Shown piece after piece: positions 4,243 to 44,000 of a DNA stretch of 63,871 nucleotides (position 1 is its first letter; each line of letters begins with the position of its first letter). The translations under genes and the position numbers were made by a program. The stretch covers positions 1 through 63,871 of the forward strand of contig JAZKYN010000136.1 of NCBI GenBank assembly GCA_045612145.1. The letters run 5' to 3'. Source of the stretch: Bacilli bacterium. Its GTDB lineage: Bacteria > Bacillota_I > Bacilli_A > ML615J-28 > CAG-313. Below the pieces are notes generated by a model. The model had not been told where the DNA came from, searched no databases, and saw only the letters and a program-made list of their open reading frames with translations.

Positions 4243-5100
4243 CTATTTTTCAATTAAATCTATTAATTTAATATTTTCATATTTGTATGTTGATAAAAAT
4301 GATTTTCTCATTTTTCTAATATATTTTCTAGCTTTTAAACTAGCATTTTCATTTAAGTATCTAATTTTAATACCAATTGAACTATCCTTAATTTCATACA
4401 TTAGTTTTTCTATATATTTATAAAACACTTGTATAGGTACTAAATTTACAAAATTTTCTTCTTCTTCAATATGAACAAAATCAAGTTGAGGAGGGAATGT
4501 TGTAGGTAAACCTACATGCCAATTTACACTAAAATAAACATTGTCATTACCATCTTTTAATACTATATAAGGATTAGCAACAATATCATCTTTTACTACA
4601 CTTGGAAGTTCTCTTATCATAGATTGATATGTACAGACTTCATTTAATAAGTCTTGATCAACTGAATATTTTTTGATTTGAGGATTATTTTCTAAAAATT
4701 TAGTTCTTTCCTTTTGTAATAATGTAATTAGTTCGAACATATTAAATTCTTTAATATTTTCGATTCTTTCATGATAAATTGCAAATTCAAATATTTTACA
4801 TAATTCATCTATTTGTTTAAGAATTAGTCTTAAAACAAATAGTGGAACATCATCTGGTATTTCACAAAGTAAGAATGTGTTTACGAAATTAGGATTAAGT
4901 CTATATAAACTAGAAACTCGTGAACGTTTTGTGATTAAATATCTATATGATGTTTCAAATTCTGGTAAGTTAAATGTTGCAACAAATTCATCGTCATTTG
5001 ATGTTAAAATTGTATTTTCTAACTTATCAAAATATTCGTCAATTAATTGTCCGAAATCTACTCTTTCTTTACTACGATCTTTGAAAAAATATATAATCAT
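4243..5100 (-). CDS. hypothetical protein (285 aa), no recognisable family
   Basis: Clean ORF packed between ileS and deoC on the same strand. It has no signal peptide, TM segment or motif that I recognise. Confidence 0.5.
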
Positions 5101-9712: not shown

Positions 9713-9787
9713 GTCCTCATAGTTTAACGGATAAAATATAAGATTCCGATTCTTATGATAAAGGTTCAACTCCTTTTGAGGACACCA
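9713..9787 (+). tRNA. tRNA-Arg (anticodon CCG), CCA encoded
   Basis: Hand-folded cloverleaf. Acceptor GTCCTCA/TGAGGAC, D stem GTTT/AAAT, anticodon stem TAAGA/TCTTA with loop TTCCGAT (anticodon CCG), T arm AAAGG-TTCAACT-CCTTT, discriminator A, then CCA. Confidence 0.9.
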
Positions 9788-18192: not shown

Positions 18193-18837
18193 TTATTCAT
18201 CCATCCAAGAAGGATCACTTGGATTACTTTGGAATTTTAATATTTTTTTGATATCATCTTTAGAAATGTAATTTTCTTCAGCAGCAACTTCTACTAATGT
18301 TTCAAAGTTAGAAAGAGAATGATTAATTACATTTGCTTGTGATAATTTATCTTTTCCTTTTTGTAAGTTATAAGTAAAGATTGAAGCAATACCAAGAACA
18401 TTACATCCCGCTTCTCTTAATACATCTACAACTTCAATTGAAGAACCAGCTGTTGAAATTAAGTCTTCAATTACAACAACATTTTTACCAACAGGTACTA
18501 CACCTTCAATTTGGTTTCCTCTTCCATGGTCTTTAGCTCCACCTCTTACATATCCCATAGGCATATCTAAGATATCAGAAACATATGCAGCATGAGGAAT
18601 CCCTGCAGTTGATGTACCCATAATTACTTCACAAGTTGGGAAATATTCTTTAATTACTTCTGCAAGACCATTTTCAACAACTTTTCTTGTTTCAGGATAA
18701 GATAAAGTTAATCTATTATCACAATAGATTGGAGATTTAATACCTGATGCCCATGTGAATGGATCATTTGGTTTTAAAAATACAGCATTAATTTTTAATA
18801 AATTTTTTGCTACTTCTTTAGCTAATTGGTTACTCAT
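18193..18837 (-). CDS. pyrE: orotate phosphoribosyltransferase
   Basis: 214 aa with the PRPP-binding loop [13 protein letters not shown]. It is the last gene of the pyr operon. Confidence 0.9.
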
Positions 18838-18838
18838 A

Positions 18839-19525
18839 TTAACAAAACTCCTTTACACATTTTTTGTATGCAGCAACTGGATCTTCTGCTCCTGTAATAC
18901 TTCTTCCAACAACAATATATGTTGAACCATTTTCTTTTGCAAACGCAGGTGTTGCAATACGTTTTTGGTCATTTGCAGAATCATCAGCAAATCTAATTCC
19001 AGGAGTTACTGAAATTAATCCTAACTCTTTTATAATTGCAGCTTCAAGTGGTGAACATACAACACCATCAAGTCCTGCTTCTTTTGCATTTAATGCATAT
19101 TGTTTAACAACTTCATTTAATGGTTTTTCAATTAATAATTCTTTTTCTAAAACTTCTTGTGAAGTTGATGTTAATTGTGTTACGGCAATTAGTTTTGTTT
19201 TTTTACCTTCTTCTGTGCTATCAAGACCACGTCTTGCAGCTTTCATCATTTCGATTCCGCCAGCTGCATGAAGATTAGTAATTTCAACACCTAATGTTCC
19301 AATGTTTTTCATTGCTTTTTCAACAGTGTTAGGAATATCATGTAATTTTAAATCTAAGAAGATTTTAAATCCTTTATCATGTAATTCTTTTACAAGTTGA
19401 GGTCCTTCTTTATAAATAATTTCCATTCCAAGTTTTAAATATGGATTTAATCCTTCAAATGGTACTAAAAAATCATATAATTTTTCTTTATTGCTAAAAT
19501 CACAAGCGATAATTACATCTCTCAT
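18839..19525 (-). CDS. pyrF: orotidine 5'-phosphate decarboxylase
   Basis: 228 aa with the [10 protein letters not shown] catalytic motif and a C-terminal VVGRSI motif. Confidence 0.9.
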
Positions 19526-20436
19526 TATTTTCTTCCTCCAATGATATCTTCTAATTTTTCAATATTATATTCTTTCATTACTTTTGGTAAGTCATCAATT
19601 ATTTTTTTACAAGCGTAAGGGTCAATTAAATTTTGTGCACCAACCATTACTAAGCTTGCGCCAGCATACATCATTTCAATTACATCATAAGCAGTTGAAA
19701 CACCACCCATACCTATAATTGGAAGGTCAACAGCATTTGAAACTTCATAAACCATTCTTAAAGCAACTGGGAATATACCAGGACCACTATAACCGCCTTT
19801 AACGTTTGCGATAATTGGTTTTCCTGTCTTTAAATCAAATCTCATTCCAACAAGTGTATTAATTAAACTTATTGCATCAGCTCCAGCTCTTTCAACAGCT
19901 TTTGCCATTTCTACAACATTTGTTACATTTGGGCTAAGTTTTACGATAATTGGTTTAGTAGACACTTTTTTTACTTCTTTTACAAGTTCATATGCAGTAT
20001 CAGGATCAACACCAAAAGCCATACCTCCACCTGTAACGTTAGGACATGAAATATTTAATTCAATAGCAAATGTTTTATCCGATTCGTTAAATTTTTTAAC
20101 AGTTTCAGTATATTCATATACACTGTGGCCACCAACATTTGCAATAATTTGATCTTCATACACTTCATCAAGTTTTACTAATTCTTCAGTTACAACTTTA
20201 TCTACACCTGGATTTTGAAGTCCAATCGCATTAATTAAACCTGATGGACATTCAGCAATTCTTGGAAGTTTATTCCCGTATCTTGGTTCTAATGTTGTAC
20301 CTTTTATTGAAATACTTCCTAATATATTAATATCATATAAGTCACTAAATTCATAACCGAATCCAAATGTTCCAGAAGCTGGAATAATTGGGTTTTTAAA
20401 TTCTTTACCTAGAAATTTAATTTTTAAATTTTCCAT
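19525..20436 (-). CDS. pyrD: dihydroorotate dehydrogenase, class 1B catalytic subunit
   Basis: 303 aa with the active-site LNISCPN cysteine. It is paired with pyrK by 1-nt overlaps on both sides. Confidence 0.9.
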   Translation of the reverse strand: MENLKIKFLGKEFKNPIIPASGTFGFGYEFSDLYDINILGSISIKGTTLEPRYGNKLPRIAECPSGLINAIGLQNPGVDKVVTEELVKLDEVYEDQIIANVGGHSVYEYTETVKKFNESDKTFAIELNISCPNVTGGGMAFGVDPDTAYELVKEVKKVSTKPIIVKLSPNVTNVVEMAKAVERAGADAISLINTLVGMRFDLKTGKPIIANVKGGYSGPGIFPVALRMVYEVSNAVDLPIIGMGGVSTAYDVIEMMYAGASLVMVGAQNLIDPYACKKIIDDLPKVMKEYNIEKLEDIIGGRK

Positions 20437-21164
20437 TAGAATTTCACCTCACTTGCTTCAAAAACAGGACCTTCTTTACAAACACGTTTAGGACCGTTTA
20501 TTGTTTCAATTGAGCATCCCATACATGCGCCAAATCCACATCCCATTCTTGCTTCTAAGCTTACACATCCATTTGGATATGCTTTACTTAAAAACTCAAG
20601 CATTTTGTGTGGTCCACATGAATAATAATAATCAAATTCAATATTATTGTTTTTAATACAATCAATAACATTTCCTTTATATCCAAGTGTTCCATCATCT
20701 GTACAAACAACAACATTACATAGTTTTTCTAGTTCTTCTACAAGCACAATATCATCCTTTGATCTTGCTCCATAAACAAGTGTTGGTTTAATTCCAACTT
20801 TATTGAATTCTTCAGCAAGCCCAAATAGTGGAGCAATACCAATACCACCACCGATTAATAATGGTTTAATATCTTTTTTAACAGTAAAACCATTTCCTAG
20901 TCCAACTAATGTATCAATTTTTGTTCCTTTTTCAAATGTAGATAAGTCTCTTGTTCCATGACCTAATACTTTATATAAAATGTCAACATGTTTATCGCTA
21001 AATCTACATACTGATATTGGTCTTCTTAAATAATATCCTGGAATTGTAACATTAATAAATTCACCAGAATTTTTAATAGCTTTTGTATCACCAACAAGTG
21101 TCATTAAGAAAACATCTTTACCAACTTGTACATTTTTTTCTATTGTCAAAATTACATTTTCCAT
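20436..21164 (-). CDS. pyrK: dihydroorotate dehydrogenase electron-transfer subunit
   Basis: 242 aa with the FAD motif RRPISV and the C-terminal 2Fe-2S cysteines CGFGACMGC...C. Confidence 0.85.
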   Translation of the reverse strand: MENVILTIEKNVQVGKDVFLMTLVGDTKAIKNSGEFINVTIPGYYLRRPISVCRFSDKHVDILYKVLGHGTRDLSTFEKGTKIDTLVGLGNGFTVKKDIKPLLIGGGIGIAPLFGLAEEFNKVGIKPTLVYGARSKDDIVLVEELEKLCNVVVCTDDGTLGYKGNVIDCIKNNNIEFDYYYSCGPHKMLEFLSKAYPNGCVSLEARMGCGFGACMGCSIETINGPKRVCKEGPVFEASEVKF

Positions 21165-21166
21165 AA

Positions 21167-24100
21167 TTACTCCTTGTCAATTACTGAAATACCCATTGTC
21201 ATTTCTTCAAGTACATCAAGTAATACTTTTACAGTATCAAGGCAAGTAAACATTGCTACATTATTATCAATAGCAGCACGTCTAATTGCTCTACCATCAT
21301 TTGTTTCTCTTTCAGAATCAGATGTTGTATTTATTACATAAGTAACATAACCTTTTTTGATTGATTCTAAAATTTCATCGCTACCTTGAGAAATTTTTCC
21401 TCTTACACGCGTTTTAATTCCATGATTTTTTAAGAATGCTGCAGTACCTTTTGTAGCTTCAATATTGAATCCTAAATTATAAAATCTTTGAATTAAAGGT
21501 AAAGTTGCTTCTTTATCTTCATCTGATATTGTTGCAAATACAGTTCCGTAATTTGCAACTCTTGTTCCAGATGCTTTTAATGATTTATATAAAGCTCTAT
21601 TTAATGAATAATCATATCCAATTGCCTCACCTGTAGATTTCATTTCAGGTGATAATACAGCATCAAGTCCTGAAATTTTTGTAAATGAGAATGTTGGAGA
21701 TTTAACATACCATCTTTTTCTATTTTCAGCAACACCAACATATCCAAGTTCTTTTAATGTTTTTCCTAACATTACTTTTGTCGCAATATTTGCAACAGGA
21801 ATACCTGTTGATTTTGCAAGGAACGGCACTGTTCTACTTGAACGTGGATTTACTTCAATAATATATACTTTATTATCTTTATCAACAATAAATTGGATAT
21901 TATATAAACCTTTCATATTTAGTTTTATACCAATTCTTGTTGTATAATCAACAATAACTTTTTTTACTTCTTCACTTAATGAATATGGAGGATATACTGA
22001 CATACTGTCACCACTATGAACACCAGTTCTTTCAATGTGTTCCATAATACCTGGAATAAATACATCAACACCATCACACACAGCGTCTACTTCGCATTCT
22101 TGACCAACAATATATTTATCAACAAGTACAGGATGTTCATTATCAAATTGAACAGCTTCTTTTACTTTTGCTTTTAAAACTTTATCATTGTAAACAATAT
22201 GCATCATTCTACCACCTAGAACAAATGATGGTCTAACAAGTACAGGATATCCAATTTCATTTGCGACTTTAAGGGCCTCTTCAACTGAGTATACACCAAA
22301 TCCTTTAGGCATAGGAATATTAATTTCTTCCATTGCTTCTTCGAATAATTGTCTGTCTTCTGCAAGATCAATACTCTTTGCAGATGAACCAAAAATAGTT
22401 ACACCAGCTGCATCTAAACGTGATGCAAGATTAATTGCAGTTTGTCCACCTAAAGCAACAACAACACCTTCTGGTTTTTCATAATCAATAATATTCATAA
22501 CATCTTCAAATGTTAATGGTTCAAAGTATAATTTATCTGAAACAGTATAGTCTGTAGAAACTGTTTCTGGGTTATTATTAATAATAATAGCTTCATATCC
22601 TGCTTCTTTAATAGCCCAAATCGCATGAACTGTTGTATAGTCGAATTCTACACCTTGTCCAATTCTGATAGGACCAGAACCAAGAACTACGATTTTTTTC
22701 TTTTTAGTTACAATTGATTCATTTTCATTTTCATATGTTGAATAGAAATATGGAACATATGATTTATATTCTCCAGCACATGTGTCGATAAATTTATATA
22801 CTGGATAGATATTATTTTCTTTCCTTAATTCATAAATATCTCTTTCATTAGAATTCCATAGATTAGCAAGATATCCATCTGAGAATCCTAATTTTTTTGC
22901 TTTTTTAAGAATTTCAAGATTAAATTCATTTTCTTTTACTTCATTTTCAAATTCAACAATATTTAAAATTCTATCTAAGAAGAATTTGTCAATTTTTGTT
23001 AAATTATAAATTTCTTCAACAGTTACGCCTTTTCTAAATGCTTCAGCAATTGCAAAAATTCTTTCATCTGTATGATTGTCAATTAAATCAAGAAGTTCTT
23101 CAACACTTAATTCTTTTAATGCTTTTATTTCAATGTGATTAACTTTATTTTCTAAAGATCTAATTGATTTTAAAAGCGATTCTTCAAATGTTCTTCCGAT
23201 ACTCATTACTTCACCAGTTGCTTTCATTTGTGTTGAAAGACTTCTATTGGCAGTAGTAAATTTATCAAATGGGAATCTTGGGAATTTTGTAACAACATAA
23301 TCAATAGTTGGTTCAAATGATGCAGGAGTTGATGCAATTTGAATTTCATCAAGTGTTAATCCCACTGCAATTTTTGCAGAAACTCTCGCAATAGGGAACC
23401 CTGATGCTTTAGAAGCAAGTGCAGATGATCTTGAAACACGTGGATTAACTTCTATTAAATAATACTTGAATGAATAAGGGTCAAGTGCAAATTGTACGTT
23501 ACATCCACCTTCAATTTTTAATCCTCTAATAATTTTTAAAGCAGAATTACTTAGCATTGAAAATTCTTTGCTTGTAAGTGTTTGAGCTGGAGCTACAACA
23601 ATTGAGTCACCAGTATGAATACCTACAGGGTCAACATTTTCCATTGAACAAATAACGATTGATGTATTGTTTTTATCTCTCATTACTTCAAATTCAATTT
23701 CTTTAAATCCTTTTATTGATTTTTCAACAAGTACTTGTGATACAGGAGATAGTTTTAATGCATTTTTTGCAAGAGGAATTAATTCTTCTTCGTTATCAGC
23801 AAATCCTCCACCTGTTCCACCAAGTGTAAATGCAGGTCTTAAAATAACAGGATAACCTATTTTATTTGTTGCAGCAATAACTTCTTCAAGAGTTGTTGCA
23901 ATTTCTGATTCAATAATTGGTTCCCCAAGTTCGATACATAGATTTTTAAATAATTCTCTATCCTCTGCTTTTTCAATTACATCAGCATCTGTACCTAGTA
24001 ATTCTACACGGCATTCGTCAAGAATACCTTTTCTATATAATTGCATACCTAAATTTAAACCAGTTTGTCCTCCAATTGAACAAATCAATCCATCAGGTCT

Positions 24101-24343
24101 TTCGTATCTGATAATTTTTGCTACATTTTCTAAGTCAAGTGGTTCCATGTAAACTTTATCAGCAATCTTAGAGTCAGTCATAATAGTTGCTGGATTTGAG
24201 TTTACAAGAATTACTTGATATCCTTCTTCTTTTAAAGCAAGACATGCTTGTGTTCCAGCATAGTCAAATTCTGCTCCTTGTCCAATAACAATAGGACCAG
24301 AACCAATTACCATTATTTTTTTCAGGTCTTTTCTTTTAGGCAT
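21167..24343 (-). CDS. carB: carbamoyl-phosphate synthase large subunit
   Basis: About 1058 aa with duplicated ATP-grasp halves ([19 protein letters not shown] and [19 protein letters not shown]) and a C-terminal MGS-like domain. The start is set at ATG 24343 (MPKRK), after GGAGG. It overlaps the carA stop by 8 nt. Confidence 0.97.
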
Positions 24344-25427
24344 GTTTATTACCTCCATTATTTTTAATTAAGTTAATAAAAGTTTTAAATACATTTTCAC
24401 TATCTTGATCAATTTGTGGAATAGAATCAAATAATACAGCAAACACATTATTTTCTTTATCCATAAATCCTACAGCTTCTTTGTCAATTACATTTTGATG
24501 CGTAATTTCTAAACTTGAATTATTTAATTCATCTTGATTTAATGAGTATAAATAATTTTGCGCTGTAATTTCAATTTTCCCTGTTTCTAAATTTTTTACA
24601 GGATAATTTAATCCATGGTGCCCTGCTATTAATTTATAAGGTTCAATACCATAAGAAATACCTATTAAATTATAGCCAAGGTTAATACCAAAAACTGGTA
24701 ATACACCGATAAAACTTTTAATATTTTCTATAACTTCATCTAAATATTGGGGGTTACCTGGACCATTAGAAATAAATAGCCCATCTGGTTTATATTTTAA
24801 AATTTCTTCTTTTGTAACATTATAAGGGAAAACAATTACGTTACATCCAAATTTATTTAATTCTTTAATATAACTATTTTTTACACCTAAGTCAATAACA
24901 GCAACATTTAATGATGAGTTAGGAGTACGTGAATACCAAATTCTTTTTGAAGAAACACTTGGTACCATTTTTTCTTCTTCTACATAGTTATTAAGAATTT
25001 CTAAACACTCTTCAAGAGGTTTATCAATATCGCAAATTAATCCTTTTAAACATCCATTGTCACGAACAACTTTCATAATGCTTCTTGTATCAACGCCAGC
25101 AATACCAGAAACATTATTTTCTTCCATTACATCTTCTAAAGTTCTTGTATATCTAAAGTTCGATGGAATTTCATTATATTCTCTAACGATTAAACCTTTT
25201 ACTTTAATGTTTTTAGATTCATAATCTTCATCAGTTAATCCATAGTTACCAATTAAAGGATAAGTCATACAAATCATTTTATTTGCATTAGTTGGATCAG
25301 AAATAATTTCTTGATAGCCAACAACAGAAGTGTTATAGATAATTTCAGCAACACATTCGTTTTGGCAACCAAATCCAACACCTTCAAATACCATTTTGTT
25401 TTCAAGTACTAATTTACGATTGTTCAT
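24336..25427 (-). CDS. carA: carbamoyl-phosphate synthase small subunit homolog with a degenerate glutaminase site
   Basis: 363 aa. The N-terminal CPSase small-chain region is well conserved (TYPLIGNYG). The GATase motifs are altered: FGINLGYNL replaces FGICLGHQL, and LFDSI replaces (Y/F)HPE. Confidence 0.9.
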
Positions 25428-25439
25428 ATTTTTTCTCCC

Positions 25440-26639
25440 TTATTTTTTATATACTAATTTACCATTTACAAATGTATATTTGGTAAAACCATAATACGAT
25501 TCATTTATAAATGGCGAGTTTTTTCCTTTTGATAATATTTCATTTTCTAAATATTGATGTTCATTTTCAATATCTAATACTACAATATCTGCAATAAATC
25601 CTTCTTTTAAATCTCTTTTTGGAAGATTAAAAACTTTAATAGGATTAAAAACAAGAATATCCAAAAATTTATCTAAACTAATAAGATTAGTTTTAACAAA
25701 GTTTGTATAAATAATAGGAATCAGTGTTTCAAGACCAATAATACCATTTGGACATTTATCATATTCTTGCGATTTTTCTTCTTGACTATGTGGTGCATGA
25801 TCTGATGCAATCATACATGCAGTCCCATCAAGTAAAGCCTCAACTGTTGCAATTCGATCTTCTTCAGGTCTAAGAGGGGGATTCATTTTGAAATTTGCAT
25901 TTTTTATCATATCTTTATTTAAGATTAAATGATGTGGTGCAACTTCACATGTAATATTATATCCTTCTTTTTGTGCTTCTCTTATAGCATCAAAAGATTC
26001 TTTTACTGACATATGGCAAAAATGATATTTGCAACCAATTTTTTTTGCAAGTTCTATTTCGCGTCTAACAGCAACATATTCGCCTTCTCTATCATATTTA
26101 TAAAAATTATCTTCTGCATGTGAGGCTATAGTTAAATCATATTTTTTAGCAAGAATCATTGCTTGTTCTAATAATTCTAAATTATTAACACCTCTACCAT
26201 CATCAGAAATACCAAATACTTTGTCATGCATTTCATCAATTTTTGATAAAACTTTGTCTTCCTCATTTACTGTGACACTACAAAATGGATACACATTTAC
26301 AATAGCATCTTTTTTTATAGCATCAAGCTGTACATTTAAATTTTCAAGACAGTCAGGACAAGGTTTTAAGTTTGGCATTGACATTATCGATGTTACTCCA
26401 CCTTTTGCGGCAGACAATGTTCCTGTTTTAACTGTTTCTTTATATTCAAAACCTGGTTCTCTTAAGTGAACATGTACATCTACAGCACCAGGCATTACCA
26501 AACATCCTAATGCATCAATAACTTCACAATTTTCTTCAATATTATTATCAATTTTTAAAATAGTATTTTTTTCAATAAGTATATCTTTTTTAACTAAAGA
26601 ATTGTTTTCAATAATTTTTCCGTTTTTAATAAGAATCAT
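25440..26639 (-). CDS. pyrC: dihydroorotase
   Basis: 399 aa with metal ligands DVHVHLREPG, ASHAED, CHMS and ASDHAPH. Confidence 0.9.
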   Translation of the reverse strand: MILIKNGKIIENNSLVKKDILIEKNTILKIDNNIEENCEVIDALGCLVMPGAVDVHVHLREPGFEYKETVKTGTLSAAKGGVTSIMSMPNLKPCPDCLENLNVQLDAIKKDAIVNVYPFCSVTVNEEDKVLSKIDEMHDKVFGISDDGRGVNNLELLEQAMILAKKYDLTIASHAEDNFYKYDREGEYVAVRREIELAKKIGCKYHFCHMSVKESFDAIREAQKEGYNITCEVAPHHLILNKDMIKNANFKMNPPLRPEEDRIATVEALLDGTACMIASDHAPHSQEEKSQEYDKCPNGIIGLETLIPIIYTNFVKTNLISLDKFLDILVFNPIKVFNLPKRDLKEGFIADIVVLDIENEHQYLENEILSKGKNSPFINESYYGFTKYTFVNGKLVYKK

Positions 26640-26642
26640 ATA

Positions 26643-27515
26643 TTATAATCTACCTTCCATAGCAAGAGATACAACAGCCATTCTTATATAAACACCATTT
26701 GTCATTTGAGGGAAAATTCTACTTTTTTGACATTCAACAACATCATCAGCAATTTCAACACCTCTGTTAACTGGTGCCGGGTGCATGATTATTGCATTTT
26801 CTTTCATTTGATTAACTCTTTCAATTGTTAATCCGTATTCTTTATGATAATCTTCAACCGTCATCTTCATACCTTCAGTATGTCTTTCAAATTGAATACG
26901 TAATAACATAATTACATCCATTTCTTTAATAGCATCTTCAAATGAAATGAATTTACAAGAGTTATCATTAAATTCTTCAGGTCCTGAAATGTATACATCC
27001 ATTCCAAGTCGTTGCATTACTTCAATATTTGTATGAGCAACTCTTGAATTAACAATATCACCAACGATACAACATTTAATGCCTTCAAACTTTCCAAACT
27101 CTTCATAAATAGTCATTAAGTCAAGTAATGATTGTGTAGGGTGATTACTTTTTCCATCTCCACCATTGAAAATAGGAATATTGATATTTTCAAGTTCTTT
27201 GAAGTATTCATCTTGGCTTGATCTGATAACAACACCATCAACACCTAATGATTCAAATGTTTTTACAGTATCATATAAAGATTCACCTTTTTGAGCAGAT
27301 GATTTACCAGTATCACATTGTAAAACATTAATTCCTAAATTCATTAATGCACATTGAAATGAGAAATGTGTTCTTGTTGAATTTTCATAAAATAGTGTAA
27401 CTACTTTTTTACCTGGATAACTAACTTTATATCCATTTTTAATTTTACTTGCATATTCAATTATTTCAACAATTTTTTCTGTTTTTAAATCTTTTAAAGT
27501 AAGTAATCCTTTCAT
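26643..27515 (-). CDS. pyrB: aspartate carbamoyltransferase catalytic subunit
   Basis: STRT(H), HPTQ, NSRV and HPAPVNRG motifs. The start is set at ATG 27515 (MKGLLTLKDL), after GAGGTG. The track ORF starts at GTG 27527. Confidence 0.93.
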   Translation of the reverse strand: MKGLLTLKDLKTEKIVEIIEYASKIKNGYKVSYPGKKVVTLFYENSTRTHFSFQCALMNLGINVLQCDTGKSSAQKGESLYDTVKTFESLGVDGVVIRSSQDEYFKELENINIPIFNGGDGKSNHPTQSLLDLMTIYEEFGKFEGIKCCIVGDIVNSRVAHTNIEVMQRLGMDVYISGPEEFNDNSCKFISFEDAIKEMDVIMLLRIQFERHTEGMKMTVEDYHKEYGLTIERVNQMKENAIIMHPAPVNRGVEIADDVVECQKSRIFPQMTNGVYIRMAVVSLAMEGRL

Positions 27516-27577
27516 TTTGCACCTCACTATTTTATATTTTGATAAATTTTTCTATTTTACCCCATTTTATTCAATAT

Positions 27578-27606
27578 ATAATACCACAAAATGTTTTTTT
27601 TATCAA
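27578..27606 (-). promoter_or_regulatory. sigma-A type promoter of the pyr operon
   Basis: On the minus strand, TTGATA (27601-27606), a 17-nt spacer, then TGgTATTAT extended -10 (27578-27583). The leader to pyrB is about 55 nt. Confidence 0.5.
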
Positions 27607-27632
27607 CATTATAACCATACTTTTTTTAAACT

Positions 27633-27661
27633 AAAAAAAATGCACATTTTAATGTGCATTT
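27633..27661 (-). terminator. rho-independent terminator of nfo
   Basis: AAATGCACAT-TTTA-ATGTGCATTT, with the nfo stop codon in the loop. A T8 run follows on the minus strand. Confidence 0.75.
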
Positions 27662-32010: not shown

Positions 32011-35000
32011 TTATCTACCTACGTATAAACCTTTAACCATTGAAGCTAATGTAATAGTTTGAGTTTGACCATCTTTAGTAATAGTTACTGTGTAAGTTAC
32101 ACATGTAGTTTCACTTGGTTGTTTAACAACTCTACCATTATCAGCAACGATATCAGTATTATTAGATTTCATAGATACTTCGTATCCTTCGAATTCTGTC
32201 ATCATTGTGTATTCAGATTCTACTAATTGTAAGAATTCACGCCAAATTTCACAATCATTTTCTAACATAGGTTGAGGACAGTTTTTACCAGAGAAGAAAT
32301 GATGTCCTTTAACTCTAGTCATATCTAAATCATTTCTAATCATAATGTCAGCAACTAATTGAGCAGTAATTTGCCATGTGTACCATAAGTCAGAACCTTT
32401 GTTTACACATGATTCAATACCGATTGAATTATAGTTACCACCACTTGAACAGATACGTCCTTCATATACTTGAGTATAGCACCACCATGTAGTACCCATA
32501 TAGTATTTACCATTTTCAACTTTCCATGGAAGACCCATATCATTGATAAATGATTCAGGAGTTCTATTAGCAAATCCAGATTGAGCGAATGCAGGTTGAG
32601 AAGAAATTGTACCATCAGCATTTAAGATATGATCTGTTCCTCTTGAACTATAGTTCCATGGTTTAGGCATTGGAATAGTAGTTTTTTTGCCATTGATTTC
32701 GAAATAGAAATCATCAGAAATTGTGATTACAGGTTCAGCTGGATCATTTGCTAATACTTCAATTCCAGTTTCCATCCATTTGAAATCACCAACTTGTGCA
32801 CGTGAACCAGAGTCACCAGCATGGAATGCAACATATTTTTCATCTGTACAATAGAAGATTCCATCGTTACCAGTTGTATAATGAATTGATGCAGCATTAG
32901 TAGTTGAGAAGTAGTTTGCATTTGCTGCAGCATCTGCACCAGATGCCATATTACCTGTATAGTGAACAGTTACCCATTCAACAGATGACATTTCACCACC
33001 ATTGTATGCAGTTTCTTGAGTTTTTGCATAGTATTTATCGCTAATAGTTAATTTATAGTTAGATAATAATTTAGAAACACTTCCAAAGATATCCATACTA
33101 TAAGCTCCACCGATATTTAAGTTATATCTAGTGAATACATTACTATTATTAGATTCAACAACTAATTCTAAAATTCCTTCAAGAGCTTCTTCTAATACAA
33201 CAACAACAAATTCTAATGTTAATGTTTCATTATCAGGGTCTGTTGCAACAATCTTAGCTTCACCAGCTTTTAATGCTGTAACAACACCGTTTGCATCAAC
33301 TGTAGCAATTTCAGGAGTTAATGAAGTCCATAATACATTTGCATTTGTACCATCTTTGCGAACAACTTGTGCATTTAATTGAATGCTATCGTCTTTTTCA
33401 ACGTATGAGTTTGTAGCGTAAGAACCATCAATATAATCTTCTGTATAAACAGTTAAATCAAATACAACGTCAATTTCACGGTTACCATATACTTTAACAG
33501 TAATAGTTGTTGTACCATTTGCTAAAGCAGTAATTAAACCTTTATTAGAAACTGTAGCAACTTCTTCATTACTTGAGAAGAATTCAACACTCTTATCTGT
33601 AGCGTTATCTGGAGCAATTGACCAAACTAATTGATGAGTTGTGAATAATAATAATTCAGTAACTTTATTAATTTCGATTGTAGTAGGTTTTACTTCTTCA
33701 GCCCATTTAGCATAGAATGTCTTATCACCAGTATCTGTTGATACAATTTGAGTAACAGGTTCACCATTGAATTCAGCATTATCATACCAACCTAAGAATT
33801 CAAGTCCATTTTCCATATGTAATGCAGGAAGAACTACGATTTGTCCACCACGGTAAGATGTTGGAATTTCTTGAGGAATCTTAGCTGCAGAACACATTTT
33901 TGGTAAGAATGATTTATAATATCCTTCACCAGTAGATGTCCATTGTAAGAATTGATGCATTCTAACCATTGTAGCATATGTATCAGTATAGAAGTTTTGA
34001 TCAGCATTAACACCTTTCATAGCTTCTGCGAATACTACGAAGAAATCAGACCATTTTTGATAGTATTTAGGAACATTTAAGAAATATTCTGTGCTACCAT
34101 CTTCTGCAGGATAATTACCTAATTCAGTATTACGTAATTTAATATCAGTATATGCAGCTAATTGTCCATCAATGTATGCTTTGTAATCTTCGAATGATTT
34201 AGTTTCTCCATTGCCTTGAGCCCATTCATATAAGTCAGCATATAATGCATCATAGATTTCGAATCTATCATATGCAGCACGTGAAGGCCATAAAGCATTA
34301 TCTTTGTTAGTAACAAATTCAACATTATAAATTTCACCTTCTAATACTGTGAAATCAGCAACTAATTCTAAGTTTCCTTTAGAATTTGCAGGAATTTCAA
34401 TTACTAATTCTCCATTTAATAACCAACCATTAAATTGGTGATTAGCTTTTGTAAGAGAAGGTAATGCGATAACCGCGTTATTTAAACTATTATAGTTATA
34501 AGTAAATGAATCTCTTGTTGAACCACCATTTAAATCATATGTGATAACCCAGAATTCAACAGTTTCTACTTCTGGTAAAGTTGGTTCAGAACCAAGAATA
34601 GTACCTTTAGTTTTTACATCAATAAAGTATTTATTTAATGTTTCTAAATCTGTAATAGCGTTACCATCATTGTCTTCATAATAGTTAGCACCAAAGATTG
34701 TATTGATTGGAGCAGTTGAATCATTATCACCTGATGTTCCATTTCTTGATGCGAAATAGTATGCATCTGGTAATCCAATGAATTTATTATTTAATACATT
34801 AACAACCCATGTACTTGAAGCATGGTTAGCAGCAGTACCATTGTTACGAAGTCTGATGTAATTTAAGCATCCTTCGAAGTGGTTGTTTTCAATATTAATT
34901 GTTGCACCTTTTTCTTGATAGTTACGTGCAGAGATTGCACCTGAGTATAATCCAGCATCTTTTGTACCAATATTAACGAATTTATTACCTTTAATATCGA

Positions 35001-38000
35001 TTGTAGTGTCATTAATGTTACCACCACCATAAATACGGAAGTAAATACCATTATATCCACCTAAAGTATCTTGTAAGAATTCATTATTAGTAAATGATAA
35101 GATACCATTATTGTATCCACCGTGATTAAATCTAATAGCATCACGTTCAAAGTTTTTAAATACGTTACCATCAAATGAAACATTTTGTACATAAGCTAAG
35201 TTAACGTTTGTATCTGAAACATTTTCAAATTTATTATTAAAGATAGCTAAATTTAATACTTGAGTAGAAGAAGATCCACCATTTAAGTACATAAATCCAT
35301 ATGTATAAGTATTAGTTTCAACCCATGCATTTGCAGCTTTTGTTGTATCATGTACATAGTTATTTTCAAATGTGAAATTAACTACTTGTCCACCAGAAAT
35401 TTTAGCATCACCAGTGAATGCAAGACCAACTAATTTTAAGTTTTTAGCAGCAGCAGCAATTTTAACAGCACCTGTTAATACAGCTTCAGCTTCTCTTACA
35501 CCTGAATTAGGGTTAACATATTGGTTAGGACCAGCAATTGTTAAGTTAGGAACTTTTATTTCAACATCTTCAGCATATGTACCAGCCATTAAGATAATCT
35601 TATCACCATCTTTTGCAGCAGCTAAAGCTTCAGCAAGAGTAGCATAATCTAGACCTTCACCAACATATAAAGCATCTTCTTTCCATGTAGCAACTAAAGT
35701 AACATCACCAGTTTGACCAATAGCTAAACTTTCAACGATTTGACCATTTAATGTCCAACCTAAGAATACATATTTGTCTTTAGTAGGAGTAGGAAGTTTT
35801 GCAAGACCAAGTTCTGAACTATAATATTCAGGAGCATTTTCAACTTCACCACCATTTAATTCATAAGTAATTTTGTATGAATTTTCTTTATCTACATATT
35901 GAGGAACTTCATCTTCATTTGCATAATAAGGATCGTATGTTGCATTTAAGAATGAACTTGCAAGAACTGCTACATCATAGAAGTTATATCTTGCATCAAT
36001 ATTATAAGCACATGCATTATTAATAAAGTATGTTGCAGAACAATTTAATAATTTATTATAGTTAACTGTAACTGGTTGAGTTTCAGCATTTCTGTTTGCA
36101 TTTGCATCTGATCTGTATAATGAATAAGAATTATCTACAGTATTGTATGCAAAGTTAACAGGAGATTTACCATCAGCAGCACCACTATAAGTTCCCATTC
36201 TTACAGCACAGTGAGAACCAGCTGTTTGACCATTATTTAAGAATGTATTATTAACAATTTCATAATTACCTTCTTGATAGTTAATGAACCAAATAACATA
36301 TTGAGCAAAGTTTTCGAAGTGGTTACCAATGATTTTAACATCACCTTTGATACCGAATTCACCTTTATGTGCATCAGCATCATCAGTTGTAATTTTAATA
36401 GCATCATTGTAATTTTTTCTACTTACATTGAAGTTACTATTTTTAATAGTTAATCCATCGATTTGTCCACCGAAGAAAATCATTGGACGACCATTTGTAA
36501 CGTCTGTTTGTTTAATATTTGAAATAACGATATTTTCATATACAGCACCAGCAGTGTATGTATAGAAGAATAATGGAGCATTTGTTGACCATGTTTCAGG
36601 GTTAGTTAATGAATCTTGAATTACAACGTTTGTAATTGTAGGATTAGCAACACCATTATCATTACCTTTAATACGTCCATTTTCAGTTAATTTAATACCA
36701 TCGATTGTAACATCATTAGCACTAATTACAACATCACCAGTAAATACTGTTTCGTTAGTTCTTTCAACTTGGTTAGGGTTAACACCAGCGTTAGCACCTA
36801 AAATAGTAACAGATTTTGTAATATTAATTGTTGTATAAGTACCAGCAGCAATTTTGATTGTATCTCCATCAACTGCAGCTTCTAATGCTTCTTCAAATGT
36901 TGCATATGCATCAGGATTATTAGCATCAACAACTAATTCTTTTGCAGGAACATCTAATTTATTCCATGCAGCATATAAAGTAACATCTTCTTCGCAATCA
37001 GCAGCGATTGATGTAATAGCTTGTGTACAAGCTTCATCAGCAAACCAACCTAAGAATTCATATCCAGCTTTTGTTGGAGTAGGAAGTGTTGCAAGACCAA
37101 CACCTAAAAGATAATCTTTAGGAGCACCTTCAGGAAGTTTACCACCATCTAATACATAGTTAATAGCTTTAGCAGTTTCAGCTTCCCATTTAGCAACTAA
37201 TTCATAATCTCTATTTTCAAGTTTTTCAACTAAAGTTTCACCTTCATACCAACCTAAGAATTTATATCCTTCACGAGTAGGAATAGGTAAAACAACAGCT
37301 TCATTATAACCAAATTCTACTTTAGCTCCTTCAGGTAAAATTCCTTCAGCAACATCGTAAGAAATTGTATATTTTAAAGTAGCAGTATCAACCCATTTTG
37401 CAGTTAATGTGCAATTTGATCTAACAGCTGTAACTAAATCTTCACCAATATACCAACCTAAGAATAAATGACCTTCTTTAACTGGAGTAGGTAAAGCATC
37501 TTTAGCACAATAAGTATTATCCATATCGCCTAATAGAGCATTAAATCTAGCAATATTTTCAGCAACTGAGTAATCTACCATATAACCATCGTACATACCT
37601 TTTTCAGCAGGAGCAAGATTTTCATTAATTAAACCTTGAATCCAATAACGGAAGATAGTTCTTGCATTACCACCATCATTAATATTAACAGCATTTACAT
37701 CACCAGCGATCATACCATCTAACATTTTGAATAAGTCAGTGTAATATTCATTACCTAAGAAGTTATTAGCAGCAGCTGCAGCTTGCATTTCAACTTTTGC
37801 AAATTCAAAGAACCATTTATATTTAGCAAGCATTTCTGCATTACTCCAAACATATTTAATATTTGGATGAGATGTTCCTTTGAAGTTTTCTTTTGTAGTT
37901 ACTTTAGCATCAGATTTACCTGTGCTATTAAAATCTTTTAATAATTCTTCAGCAAATGAATTTAAATCTTGACCTTCCCAATGACCACCATCAAGTTCGA

Positions 38001-41000
38001 ATTCAACTGTCCATTCGTAGTCATCGATATGAATCCATTCAGCAACTAATACATCATCACCAGTTGCATTTTGAACTTTTACACCATCTAAATACCAACC
38101 TAAGAAAATATAATTTTCTTTTACAGCTACTGGTAATTCTTCATTTGGTTCAACAGTTCTTTGAACTGGGCAATAAACATTAGTGAATTTTTCCATATTA
38201 TATTCATTAGAGAAATCTAACATAAATGGATAATCACCATTACCAACAATCTTATGGTTCATTAAACCTTCTAACCAGAAACGGAATGCAGTTCTACCTT
38301 CAGCATATGAACCACCAATTGTAGCAGTATTACCAGCGATTAAACCTTCTAACATTTCAACTGTATTTGTATAACGAGCAGATTCAGTTACACCATTTGC
38401 TTCACCTGCAGCTTTGATTTCTTCAAGTGCAAATACAAATAACCAATGATATTTTTCTAACATTTCTGTATTATTAAATACATATTTAATATTTGGATGA
38501 GAAGTTGATTTAAAGCTTTCTCTTGTAGTAACAACTGCATCACTTGCACCAGTACTATTGAAATCTTTAACTAATTCTTCAGCAAATTGATCTAAATTCT
38601 TTTCAAATTGACCACCGTTTAAATCGAAGATTACTTCGTAACCAGTTTGTCCAATTTCTTTCCATTTAGCAGTTAATTTATAATTTTCATTACCAATTTT
38701 ATTAACATATTCGCCTAATTGTGTCCAGCCTAAGAATTCATATCCTTCTTTAACTGGTTCAGGAATTACAACTTCTTGTCCATATTCAAATGATGTAGGT
38801 CCTTCTGTTCCTTCTAACCATGAACCTTCATTTAAATCATATTGAATTTCAAATTTAATAATTTCCCATTTAGCAGTTAAACTAGCATCACCAGATACTT
38901 TTTCAACTTTATCATCACCATCAAACCAACCTAAGAAGATATAACCAGTACGAACAGGAGTTGGTAATTTATCTTCAACAGATAATTTAAATACGCTGTT
39001 TTGAGCAGCTAAAGCAGCTTCAAATCTTTCCATATTTTCAGCAACAGAGAAGTCAGTCATGAATGGATAATCGCTATTACCAACGATTTTTTTGTTCATT
39101 AATCCTTCTAACCAGAATCTGAAAGCAGTTCTACCTTCAGCATATGAACCACCAATTGTTGCAGTATTACCAGCAATTAATCCTTCTAACATTTCAACTG
39201 TATTAGTATAACGAGCTTCACTTGTAGTACCATTAGCTTTTGCAGCAGCTTTGATTTCTTCAAGCGCTAATACAAATACCCAATGATATTTTTCTAACAT
39301 TTCAGCTTTATCAAATACATATTTAATGTTTGGATGAGAAGTAGCTTTAAAGTCTTCTTTAGTAGTAACTTTAGCATCACTTGCACCAGTGCTATTGAAA
39401 TCTTTAACTAATTCTTCAGCAAATGCATCTAAATCCATACCTTCAACGTTAAGAGCACCACCTTGTGCATCTAATGCAACATTATATTTAGCAGCTTCCC
39501 ATTTAGCAACTAATGTTGCTTCATAAGTAGCAGTTTCTACTTGAGTTTCACCATCAAACCAACCTACAAATACATAATGTTCTCTTTCGATTGCAGGTAA
39601 TTTTGCACCATGTTCTAATACTTGAGATGGCATAGATGCTCCACCTTCTTGAACATCATAGAATTTTTGTAAATTTTCAGCAACAGAGAAGTCAGTCATG
39701 AATGGATAATCTTTATTACCAACAATTTTTTGGTTCATTAATCCTTCTAACCAGAAACGGAATGCTGTTCTTCCTTCAGCGTAATCTCCACCAATTGTTG
39801 CAGTATTACCAGCGATTAATCCTTCTAACATTGCAACCGTATTAGTGTAACGAGCTTCACTTGTAGTACCATTTGCTTTTGCTGCAGCTTTAATTTCTTC
39901 AAGCGCAAATACAAATACCCAATGATATTTTTCTAACATTTCAGCTTTATTAAATACATATTTGATGTTTGGATGAGATGTAGCTTTGAAATCTTCTTTA
40001 GTAGTAACTTTTGCATCGCTTGCACCAGTACTATTGAAATCTTTAACTAATTCTTCAGCAAATTCATCAAGAGTAAGAGGTTCAGAATATTCTGTACCAT
40101 CGTTGTAATCAAAATAAATTTTATATTCATTAACTTTCCATGTAGCAACAAGTGTTAAAGCACCTGAAGTACCAGCAGGTATCTTATCGATTTTTTCACC
40201 ATTTAATTCCCATCCTGTGAATGTATAACCTTCACGTAATGGATCACATAAAATGATTTCATCTAATTTGCTATATTTATCAGGATTTGAATCACTATTT
40301 GTACCACCGTTTAATTCATAAGTAATTTCAAATCTTTCAGAGATATATTTTGCCCATAATTCGATATCACCAGTTGTTCCAAGAGGTAATTCATAAATAG
40401 CTTCACCAGTTAATTCAGCATTAGTATACCAACCAGCAAATTCTTGACCAGCAGGAGCACCAGGGATTGCAAGAGTATAAGGTAAATCTTCAACAGTATA
40501 TGTTGTTGGAGCAAGAACTACTTCTTCATGAATTAATTCAAAATGATCCCATACTTTACCCCAAACTTCTTCTGATGTATAGTCACTACCATAACCAGCA
40601 GTAACACCAGCATCTTTAGAAGATCTTGTTAATAAGTTTTGAAGTTCTCCACGAGCTTCAGCTTGACCATCGTCTTTTGTTAATTCAGCAGCACCACGAG
40701 CAACACGTGCTTCATTAATGATAACTAATAATCCATTCCATTTAGCACCGTATTCAGCACTTGTTAAGAAGTTATAACCAGCACTTGAACCATCGCCCAT
40801 ATAAGATCTTGCAAAGAAGTCAGATCCATCAGATTTAACTACTTTACCAGAATGTTTGTTGAAATCAACAACGAAATCAGCAACTAATGCAGCCCAATCA
40901 GCGTAATCACCAACTTGAATTGTGATAGTAGGAAGAGTACCTTCACCAGCATTATATTTAATTGAATATTCGATTGCTTCCCATGCAGCGTAAACTGTTT

Positions 41001-44000
41001 TTTCGCCTTTATCTAAAGCAGTGAATTCAGTTACTGCTACTGTGCAAGCAGCGTCTAAGAACCAACCTTTAAATTCATATCCTGAACGTGTAGCACCTTT
41101 AGAAAGAGCAACACCAGTTTCTTCAACGTATGATGTAGGAGCACCAGCTTCTAATGCACCACCGTTTAATTCATAATTAATAGCATAAGTATCAAATGCG
41201 ATTACTGAATCAGACCATCTAGCATATAAAGTAATATCGCCAATTAGATCTAATGAAATAGCTTCTACTTTACCATTTTTAAGATCACTATTTGTATACC
41301 AACCAACAAATGTAGCATCCTTTTTATTAGGAGTAGCAAGTGCAACTGGTAAATCATTAATTGTATATTCGTTTACAGCTTCAGTACCAACTTGAATGTC
41401 TTTATTAGGACATGCAGCCCAGAATGCTTCACCATCAACTTCTTTAAAGTTTAGAGAAACTGGAGAAACAGATGTTAACATTGTTTCTTGTAATAAAGCA
41501 GCAAAGTTAGATCTTGCATATTTATTAAAGTTAGCAGCACCAGCAGTTAATGATAAGTAAGCTTTACCTGTATATCCTGCTTCTGCAGCATATTCAGCAA
41601 CATATTCTAATACCCAACCCCATTTAGCAGCCATTTCAGCGTTATTGAAGAATGAGTATAATCCGTATTTAACTGATTTACCGTAGAAGTTAGCAGCAGT
41701 AACATCAGCAACACCAGTTAATGTAGCATAATCATTAATGAATTCAGCAACGAATGCATCAAATGAATCGTATAATTCAGCAACTTCGTCTCTAACGAAT
41801 TGTCCACCATTTAATTCATAAGTAATTTCATAAACTGTTAATTCCCATGCAGCATATAATTTAACACTTTCAAGTAATCCAGCTTCGATAGCTTCAACTT
41901 TTTCAGTGCATGCAGCATCAGAATACCAACCTAAGAATGTATAACCTAATTTAGTAGGAACAGGAAGAGTAGCTAAACCTTCAGCGTATGTAAATGATGT
42001 AGCAGCACCTTCTGGTAATACACCTTCATTTAATACATATTCAACAGCAATTGGATCATGAGACCATTTAGCTTCTAATACAACATCTTTAGCGATTAAA
42101 GCATTGATAGTTTCAACTTTTTCACCATTTAAATACCAGCCTAAGAATTCGTTTCCAGCTTTAGCAGGAACTGGTAATGTGATTTCGCCATCAGTATAAA
42201 TGAATGAAGTTACAGGATCAACAGCACCTGGTTTTTTAACTAAATCCCAGAAACCATTTCCGATAGCATCTAATGAATAATCAGCAGTTACATAATTTTT
42301 ATTTTTTGAATATTGAATAGCACCAACAAAACCTCTTAATTCATAAGCAATTGAGTAAATATAGTTACTATTTGCAGCATTTAACTCTGATTGACTATTA
42401 TATTTATTGAAGTTTTCCCATGCTTTTTTATTAGCAGAACCAGCTACGCTTGTAATATAATCTACTAACCAAGCCCATTTAGTTCTATATTCAGCATTAT
42501 ATAAGAATAATGATGCATCACTAATTTCACTCCAAGAACCTAGAGCTGAGAATGTTGCAGCTGTATGAGATTTACCTCTTGCAGTATTATAATCATTTAA
42601 GAAATCAGCAACTAATTCTTCACGAGATGAATATAAATAATTGCTTAATAATCCACCATTGTAGTTATATGTGATTGTATATTGATCAAGTTCAAATTTA
42701 GCAGTTAATTCAATATCACCAGCAGAACCTTTTTCAATTTTTTCAACTTTATTACCATCAGCATCATACCAACCTAAGAATTTTTCACCAAGTTTGTAAG
42801 CAACAGGTAATTCGAATGTTTCTGTATTAACTGTGAAAGTATTTACTAATTCAAAATTTAATAATTGATCCCAGAAACCATTAGCTAATTCATCATTAGT
42901 AAAGTCAGCACTCTTTGGCCAGCTTGCGCGACAATCTTCAAATAAGAATGCACCTAAAGAATATCTCCAGAATGCTTCACTACCACTGATTAAGCTATCT
43001 TTGCTTCCGCCTTCAGTAGACTCGATGATATAGTCTTTTAACCAAGCCCATTTAGCAGCATATTTAGCATCTGAGAAGAATCCATAAATAGCACTAAATA
43101 CGTTAGCGAATCCATATGCGTCTCCTGAATCATCAACCATGCAAGTAGGTTTGTTTGTTTTACCTGCCCATGCCATAGCATCATTTAAGAAATCATCAAC
43201 CATAGCAGCACGATCTTTACCATATTCATATAAATCACCAGGGTTAAGTGACCAGTCACCACCATTTAAGTTATATGAAATAGTGTATTCAGCTAATTCC
43301 CATTTAGCAACTAATTCAACGTTACCAATAGTTAATTTTTCAACTTTGTTTTCACCAGCATACCAACCTAAGAAATTATATCCATGTTTAGTTGGAGCAA
43401 CAAGAGTAACAGGAGCATCAACAACTGTGTATGCAGTTGGGTTAGTTTCAGCACCTTCACCACCAGCTAAATCATAACTTACAGTGTAAGTAATAATATC
43501 CCATTTAGCATAAAGTGTTAAGTCTTCTCTTGCATCAGCAGGGATTTCTGTTAATGCTTCACCAGTAAATGCAGCGTTATCATACCAACCAGCAAATGTA
43601 TAACCTTCTTTTGTAGCTTCAGCTAAAGCGATAGGAAGATTAAATACGTTGTAACCAGCAGGGTTAGTAGCAGCATTTGTACCACCGTCTAAAACGTAGT
43701 TAACTGTGAAATCAGACTCTAAAACTTCAAGTTCAAATTTATATGTACGATATTCTTCTTCGTATAATAAATTTTCTGCAACAACTGTAATAGTTACTTT
43801 ACCAGCTTTTAAAGTAGTAATTAAACCATTTTCATCGATTGCAGCAACTTCTGGATTAGATGATGCATAAGTTAATTTAACATTTTCTTCTGCTTCTGCA
43901 GGAGTAAATGTGCATTCAACTTGGCTAGTTTTTCCTTTAAGGATACTGCCTTCAGCACCAACAAATTCCATTTCAGGAAGTCTGTCTTGAATAACTGTGA

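Follow-up and report, generated by a model that had tools for sequence, protein, structure and literature searches.

Can a bacterial carbamoyl-phosphate synthetase (CPS) dispense with the glutaminase activity of its small subunit, and for what would that subunit then be kept? The question is raised by the carA gene in a stretch of 63,871 nucleotides from a Bacilli bacterium (assembly GCA_045612145.1, contig JAZKYN010000136.1), which was analysed at its full length and is called the window below. A sequence-only reading had claimed that the CarA encoded here lacks the whole Cys-His-Glu triad of class I amidotransferases (Cys269, His353 and Glu355 of Escherichia coli CarA, whose numbering is used here for family positions). 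The triad is missing, both from this protein and from a large clade around it, and the gene is maintained by selection beside an intact carB; the enzyme probably makes carbamoyl phosphate from free ammonia. The gene, its two domains and the altered segments of its active site are placed as follows.

24336..25427, minus strand: carA, encoding a 363-amino-acid CPS small subunit whose (pseudo-)glutaminase domain is inactivated (open reading frame, Pfam, NCBIfam, phmmer)
25035..25412, minus strand: N-terminal CPSase small-chain domain (residues 6-131), which docks to CarB (PF00988, E 3.9e-44)
24357..24911, minus strand: class I glutamine amidotransferase (GATase)-fold domain, residues 173-357, without triad or glutamine site (PF00117)
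24681..24683, minus strand: Asn249, encoded by AAC, in place of the nucleophile (E. coli Cys269; phmmer, MAFFT)
24408..24428, minus strand: residues 334-340 of the remodelled segment F-D-S-I-P-Q-I-D (residues 333-340), which replaces Y-H-P-E-S-A-P-G-P

Asn249 stands opposite Cys269 in the phmmer alignment to PDB 1c30 and 1m6v and in three MAFFT alignments. The nucleophile elbow aligns by phmmer without gaps, reading G-I-N-L-G-Y-N in the window and G-I-C-L-G-H-Q in E. coli, and no Cys is present in this segment. In the remodelled segment a one-residue deletion accompanies the replacement of Gly359 and Pro360 by Ile and Asp, and neither His353 nor Glu355 is found; the clade consensus of this segment is F-E-P-V-x-P-I-D. 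Owing to the deletion, the register at 353-355 is ambiguous: phmmer sets His353 opposite Ile336 and Glu355 opposite Gln338, and MAFFT, in family context, sets His353 opposite Asp334 (GAT, 24426-24428) and Glu355 opposite a gap or Ile336. Neither register yields a His or Glu at these positions, and the sole His beyond residue 310 lies two residues from the C-terminus. The glutamine-binding residues have all been replaced as well (Ser47 by Thr, His272 by Tyr, Gln273 by Asn, His312 by Tyr), and further substitutions are Tyr48 to Asn, Gln51 to Lys and Gly293 to Leu.

Homologue scans of genome and metagenome contigs gave mostly distant, triad-intact CarAs, which were used as an intact control set. 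Among 96 such proteins from many phyla, Cys269, Gln273, His312, His353 and Glu355 are each present in 96 of 96, and Ser47 in 95 of 96. Since the triad positions are invariant among intact CarAs, the substitutions in the window are beyond normal variation.

In its remaining features the gene is an ordinary member of its family, set in a pyrimidine operon.

18193..27515, minus strand: pyr operon, pyrB-pyrC-carA-carB-pyrK-pyrD-pyrF-pyrE, all members identified through NCBIfam equivalogs
21167..24343, minus strand: carB, intact CPS large subunit, 1058 amino acids (1062 bits to E. coli CarB; NF003671, 1510 bits)
24336..24356, minus strand: GGAGGTAATAAACATGCCTAA, Shine-Dalgarno sequence and ATG of carB within the final codons and stop of carA (translational coupling)

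The same gene order is found at seven other loci (L081-L084, L165, L167 and L170). The carA and carB genes overlap by 8 nt (ATGCCTAA), an overlap retained in L081-L084, with the carB ATG at 24343 and its Shine-Dalgarno sequence, GGAGG, inside the last carA codons. The C-terminal tail of CarA, G-G-N/K-K-H/N-A, is conserved and is encoded by the ribosome-binding site and start codon of carB; because the tail DNA is the carB start region, the conservation is probably a constraint at the nucleotide level and not at the protein level. The mechanical list of open reading frames started carB at an ATG at 24358 and pyrB at a GTG at 27527; from orthologues and Shine-Dalgarno position the starts were corrected to ATG 24343 for carB and ATG 27515 for pyrB (290 amino acids).

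The PF00988 match spans the full profile (1-126 of 126), PF00117 matches residues 177-331 (E 1.5e-26), and NCBIfam TIGR01368 scores 351.6 bits against a cut-off of 307.35. Because the profile score exceeds its cut-off and carB is adjacent, the protein is a CarA orthologue by descent. Membership in the class named by the label 'glutamine-hydrolysing' is not supported, to judge from the missing triad and glutamine-binding residues.

The claims of the sequence-only reading about this gene have therefore stood. Its central one, that the entire triad is missing, holds in pairwise, multiple and structural alignments; it had placed the Asn codon AAC opposite Cys269, as phmmer and MAFFT both do; and where it had read no His or Glu around 353-355 the window has L-F-D-S-I-P-Q-I-D, with neither residue in either register. 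The alignment to the GATase profile and to orthologues, which it had proposed as a check on its motif alignment, gives a Pfam GATase match and does not restore Cys, His or Glu, so the motif alignment was correct. It had also called the N-terminal small-chain part and the gene context canonical, and the full-length PF00988 match, the 8-nt overlap with an intact carB and the complete operon found by NCBIfam bear this out.

The loss is not confined to one genome. Assembly error is ruled out, as the 90% cluster of the window CarA has 15 member sequences on separate contigs and the same Asn occupies position 269 in two independent assemblies at 86-90% identity (L083, L084). Among the best 120 homologue clusters (56-90% identity), 96 are full-length and lack the triad. 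Position 269 in a 100-member clade set is Gly in 63, Cys in 18, Ala in 8, Asn in 7 and Ser in 4; position 353 is Glu or Asp in ~93% of the clade, and residue 355 is missing or hydrophobic. The survey of relatives that the sequence-only reading had suggested thus finds the triad loss shared by ~100 homologue clusters with the same pyr operon. Public labels on these relatives are 'Bacilli bacterium' and 'Acholeplasmatales bacterium'.

Ratios of nonsynonymous to synonymous substitution (dN/dS) were computed by the Nei-Gojobori method between the window and L083 and L084, at dS ~0.5. The ratio is 0.11-0.14 for the whole of carA (0.09-0.13 for the N-terminal domain, 0.13-0.14 for the GATase domain), 0.044-0.063 for carB and 0.025-0.105 for the other pyr genes. 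Neither mark of a pseudogene, a broken frame or a dN/dS near 1, was found: carA has no frameshifts or stops in ~100 clusters that diverge down to 56% identity. An AlphaFold2 model of the window CarA, computed from an alignment of 39 clade sequences, has a mean predicted local distance difference test score of 89.3, with the GATase domain above 90, and superposes with a TM-score of 0.90 on E. coli CarA (1jdb) and of 0.85 on the N-terminal moiety of human CPS1, which is inactive. With dN/dS low and the fold confidently predicted, we take carA to encode a folded protein maintained by selection.

Selection on the GATase domain has nevertheless changed, as a comparison of column entropies between the 96 intact CarAs and the 100-member degenerate clade shows. 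Positions invariant in intact CarAs and variable in the clade are S47, C269, H272, Q273, F288, H290, H312, D334, Q351, H353, E355 and D362, a set that includes the triad and the glutamine-binding S47, H272, Q273 and H312. In the clade, column entropy averages 0.74 bits over the N-terminal domain and 1.28 bits over the GATase domain; intact CarAs have the reverse pattern (1.45 and 1.26 bits). Divergence was also compared at equal CarB p-distance (0.08-0.16) between 34 genomes whose CarA is degenerate and 78 in which it is intact. Relative to CarB, the GATase domain diverges 3.2-3.7 fold in the clade against 1.3-1.45 fold in intact lineages, a relative rate ~2.5 times higher, and the N-terminal domain 1.9-2.2 fold against 1.6-1.7 fold. 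The ratio dN(carA)/dN(carB) is 2.4-2.6 in the window's clade, where CarA is the least conserved operon protein, and 1.2-1.26 in the nearest intact sister clade (L165, L171, L172), where CarA is among the best conserved; dS in the sister clade is saturated (>1), which makes dN/dS unusable there, so dN ratios were used instead. Constraint on the GATase domain is relaxed, not lost.

The nearest triad-intact CarA is P0096 at locus L165 (GCA_964473015.1), from an identical operon in another genome. Its CarB is 82% identical to that of the window and its other pyr proteins 70-84%, with CarA at just 57%; at a CarB identity of 83.7% or more to the window, all genomes carry a degenerate CarA. The identical operon and this cut in CarB identity place the loss in the orthologous pyr-operon gene itself, in the ancestor of a large clade. 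Some clade members keep Cys269, even within G-x-C-L-G-H-Q, and none keeps His353 or Glu355; a few still have Tyr48 and Gln51 together with the 353-360 motif in its new form. These patterns suggest that His353 and Glu355 were lost and the 355-361 loop remodelled before Cys269 and the pocket drifted. In L165, genes at 5870-7742 for an Sa_NUDIX protein and an SMODS/DncV-like nucleotidyltransferase are found immediately upstream of the pyr operon; they resemble defence genes of the cyclic-oligonucleotide-based anti-phage signalling system.

The large subunit of the window retains all ATP-grasp catalytic residues of both halves together with Cys232, Ala251 and Ala314, which have been named as a conserved gate of the ammonia tunnel (PMC4655335). 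Of the positions with 97% conservation or more among 91 CarBs whose partner is intact, only four differ in the window: P88C, D226N, R265S and one Phe to Tyr. Co-evolution of P88C with triad loss was ruled out; the change is phylogenetic, because the triad-intact sister L165 also carries Cys88. The remaining change of interest is at position 265.

23549..23551, minus strand: carB codon AGT, Ser265; Arg in 91 of 91 CarBs paired with an intact CarA

We take Arg265 of CarB to form part of the ammonia-tunnel wall with Pro360 and His361 of the small subunit. Kim and Raushel, in a study of 2004 listed among the references of PMC6245113, reportedly made the triple mutant alphaP360A/alphaH361A/betaR265A. 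If Arg265 does line the tunnel, its lost invariance would be a second sign that selection no longer acts on the passage from glutamine to CarB. Across 120 clade CarBs position 265 is Arg in 100, Lys in 17 and Ser in 3. Ser (the window's subclade and L003), Lys (L001 among other loci) or Val (L169) occurs here only in genomes with a degenerate CarA. R265S as an adaptation that perforates the tunnel and defines the clade is only partly supported, with Arg still present in 100 of 120; the variation shows relaxed constraint and not a required change. In L169 the tunnel-gate Cys232 of CarB is Thr.

In a full scan of 1.84 billion representatives of 50%-identity clusters, 1477 matched at E <= 1e-30, and among the best 150 of these 74 have Cys-His-Glu and ~70 do not, mostly with Gly at 269. 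A rough neighbour-joining tree was built from 129 full-length representatives with the active-site columns taken out; on it the 65 degenerate representatives form 24 all-degenerate groups and need at least 18 state changes, a count made approximate by the noisy tree, by the over-representation of fast-evolving sequences among representatives and by some singletons that are possibly errors. By this rough count, triad loss would have recurred independently many times in other uncultured lineages. One degenerate cluster, found on more than 100 contigs, corresponds to CarA from Candidatus Pelethenecus faecipullorum (RF39). The scans of genome and metagenome contigs also turned up independent degenerate CarAs: the triad is missing in an Anaeroplasmataceae metagenome-assembled genome (MAG; L001), in a human-gut Clostridiales MAG (L015) and at L003, L085 and L111, all outside the window's clade, and an Oscillospiraceae MAG (L010) has lost Cys269 alone. 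Sample names, where informative, are gut or faecal.

All degenerate representatives whose neighbourhood was checked (L167-L170) adjoin a full-length carB, in complete pyr operons at L167 and L170 and as a carA-carB pair at L169. At L168 (428-15060) the genes argC-argJ-argB-argD-argF lie directly upstream of pyrB-pyrC-carA-carB-pyrK-pyrD-pyrF-pyrE, with G269, Y353 and D355 in carA, and the arg cluster has no carAB of its own within the 16.9-kb locus. This suggests that one ammonia-type CPS may feed both arginine and pyrimidine synthesis there. On the sequences compared, the phenomenon is a large clade and many apparently independent losses, not the single odd gene that had first been noticed.

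We consider it likely that carA encodes a folded, catalytically dead glutaminase subunit and that CarB makes carbamoyl phosphate from free ammonia. CarB would take NH3 from the cytoplasm, as in the ammonia-dependent reaction of E. coli CarB, and CarA would be kept as a structural or allosteric partner of CarB, chiefly through its conserved N-terminal docking domain. Ammonia-rich gut contents may have removed the advantage of tunnelled ammonia derived from glutamine, and ammonia would reach the carboxyphosphate site by a path other than the old glutaminase pocket. An ammonia-dependent CPS with a structural CarA is the best supported reading because CarB is intact, CarA is selected and folded, and the loss is clade-wide and old. 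Two positions of the small-subunit tunnel are bulky in the window, 293 (Leu) and 359 (Ile, in the MAFFT register). Huang and Raushel, in a study of 2000 whose title is cited in PMC4655335 and PMC6245113, reportedly found that E. coli small-subunit mutants with a blocked tunnel lose glutamine use and keep ammonia use. The broader proposition, that a pseudo-glutaminase ammonia CPS has evolved repeatedly and is widespread in mostly gut-associated uncultured bacteria (RF39-like and Acholeplasmatales-like Bacilli, some Clostridia and others), serving there as the sole CPS for pyrimidine and arginine, seems to us evenly balanced between true and false. Downstream of the pyr operon at L082 (17310-18053) lies a gene for a 247-amino-acid NAD synthase without a glutaminase domain, of the ammonia-dependent NadE type; it fits an ammonia-based nitrogen economy, though the type is common in Bacillota.

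Several points weigh against the ammonia-dependent reading, which we draw from triad loss together with an intact CarB. The window covers 64 kb of the genome only, and an intact carA or a second CPS may lie elsewhere; Bacillus subtilis and Bacteroides thetaiotaomicron do have two CPS systems (PMC8121099). Of 100 clade members, 18 keep Cys269, though without His353 or Glu355. Residues N48, K51, Y295, E/D353, I359 and D360, around the old pocket, vary little among clade members and could point to a new function rather than plain loss. The retention of CarA is also unexplained by E. coli biochemistry, in which isolated CarB is active with ammonia.

The unseen part of the genome and the existence of paired systems in other bacteria leave room for a redundant copy, in which an intact carA or a whole second CPS lies outside the window and the operon copy is a high-ammonium isoenzyme or a tolerated relic, and relaxed constraint on the GATase domain would agree with this. 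We hold it rather unlikely: no second carA or carB was found in the window or in ~170 fetched loci, the degenerate gene fills the orthologous slot of the only pyr operon seen in ~100 clusters, and the arg cluster of L168, which has no carAB of its own, abuts a degenerate pair. The CarAB of the window would in any case depend on ammonia, whatever a second CPS did. That the gene is instead a decaying pseudogene, its frame held open merely through translational coupling to carB, is very improbable; the Shine-Dalgarno sequence and ATG of carB do lie within the end of carA, and no protein of the operon is less conserved than CarA, but a dN/dS far under 1 in both domains, open frames in ~100 clusters, a confident fold and a very conserved N-terminal domain speak against it.

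In favour of a new function for the remodelled pocket, the replacement residues (N48, K51, Y295, E/D353, I359, D360) are 89-97% conserved in the clade while the old catalytic positions drift, a carboxylate takes the place of His353 in 93% of members, and N294, P296 and N311 are invariant or nearly so. The pocket might then capture ammonium and admit it to the old tunnel, or bind a regulatory ligand or a different nitrogen donor. Such a role is quite unlikely in our judgement. At position 293, intact CarAs have Gly, Ala or Ser, the window has Leu, and most clade members have Cys or Ser; at 359 the Gly of intact CarAs is Ile in the window. Bulky residues at these positions obstruct or disrupt the tunnel of the E. 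coli enzyme and of CPS1 (PMC4655335; title of 1m6v). The signature is also missing in lineages that degenerated independently (L001, L003, L015, L085 and many representatives) and is therefore not required for the phenotype. An artefact of alignment or assembly, such that a true alignment would restore Cys, His and Glu, could draw on the differing registers of phmmer and MAFFT at 353-355, but neither register gives His or Glu, the elbow G-x-C-x-G is free of gaps and reads G-I-N-L-G, the same sequence occurs on many independent contigs and the structural match agrees, so that we regard its probability as practically negligible. The ammonia-dependent enzyme with a structural CarA is the reading that we carry forward.

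The rest of the window is housekeeping content of a Bacilli-type organism at 29% G+C. It holds no rRNA, and a tRNA at 9713-9784 is its sole Rfam match. The region upstream of pyrB (27516-27648) has neither a PyrR-binding attenuator nor any other Rfam element, and the window has no pyrR gene. Nor does the window contain genes for another amidotransferase, a glutamine synthetase, an ammonium transporter or a carbamate kinase. Two large proteins share a repeat type.

32011-44322, minus strand: 4103-amino-acid open reading frame with at least 12 Listeria-Bacteroides repeats, Big_2 domains and a C-terminal Amidase_2 domain (N-acetylmuramoyl-L-alanine amidase)
44641-47373, minus strand: 910-amino-acid protein with the same Listeria-Bacteroides repeats and an F5/8 type C domain

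Similar giant proteins occur at the same place in L083 and L084. The open reading frames at 4243-5100 (minus strand, 285 amino acids) and 53893-55239 (minus strand, 448 amino acids) have no Pfam match at E <= 0.001.

CPSs are grouped into glutamine-dependent CPS II (bacteria, fungi, CAD), CPS III, the ammonia-dependent CPS I of animals, the archaeal enzymes and orphan CarB2 (PMC6022934, PMC4655335, PMC8121099). All eubacterial CPSs to date have been held to be glutamine-dependent, which is called a long-standing hypothesis in PMC8121099 and likewise stated in PMC6022934, and the orphan CarB of Bacteroides is the only proposed bacterial exception (PMC8121099). Full-text literature searches found no description of a bacterial CarA that lacks the triad. 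If the broader proposition is right, the view of bacterial CPSs as all glutamine-dependent would be overturned, and animal CPS I would have a convergent counterpart in bacteria. Our main reading, if confirmed, would make ammonia-dependent carbamoyl phosphate synthesis possible by a fourth natural route, and direct ammonia use would appear as a recurring adaptation in small-genome gut anaerobes; the clade would also serve as a natural experiment on the roles of the small subunit other than glutamine hydrolysis.

Annotation would be affected as well. TIGR01368 and NF009475 score the triad-less CarA of the window and three others (P0020, P0093, P0442) above their cut-offs, and public records name these proteins 'glutamine-hydrolyzing carbamoyl-phosphate synthase small subunit'; the activity implied by such names is very probably wrong, given the missing residues. 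Profile annotation would then give the wrong Enzyme Commission number (6.3.5.5 instead of 6.3.4.16) to many MAG proteins, with consequences for metabolic models of the gut microbiome.

Compared with CarA/CarB of E. coli (PDB 1jdb, 1c30, 1m6v), the enzyme of the window has the same two subunits, the same two CarA domains, overlapping carA and carB genes, and identical catalytic and gate residues in CarB. It differs in having no Cys269, His353 or Glu355, in the lost glutamine-binding residues, in a shortened 355-361 loop with Gly359 and Pro360 replaced, in the bulky residue at 293 and in the change of CarB Arg265 to Ser. On its own, the CarB of E. coli can use ammonium (Trotta et al. 1971, cited in PMC8121099). 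Among prokaryotic routes based on ammonia, the orphan CarB2 (BT3866) of B. thetaiotaomicron also belongs to a gut bacterium and has been proposed as an ammonium-dependent CPS that uses ammonium directly when it is plentiful, under high-ammonium gut conditions (PMC8121099); CarB2 lacks a small subunit and stands beside a canonical CarAB, whereas carA of the window is present, coupled to carB and under purifying selection. The archaeal systems, a carbamate-kinase-like enzyme in Pyrococcus and a mini-CPS in Methanobrevibacter smithii (PMC8121099, PMC6022934), are ammonia-based too, but consist of an amino-acid-kinase fold or a half-size synthetase dimer with no CarA-like subunit.

The closest likeness is to animal CPS I (human CPS1, PDB 5dot/5dou), which retains a glutaminase-like domain that is inactive, as that of the window is in sequence, and takes external ammonia as its input (PMC4655335). 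The position of E. coli Gly293 is enlarged in both, to Leu in the window and to Gln318 in CPS1, where the Gln blocks the ancestral tunnel and ammonia is thought to use another path (PMC4655335). The differences are that CPS1 is a single fused polypeptide, dependent on N-acetylglutamate and working in the urea cycle, whereas the window has two separate genes, and that CPS1 has changed the Cys only (to Ser), whereas the window has lost the entire triad and the pocket; its place in a bacterial pyr operon marks an independent origin. On our best reading by analogy, the enzyme of the window would work most like CPS I, yet as a two-subunit bacterial enzyme of the pyr operon that arose independently.

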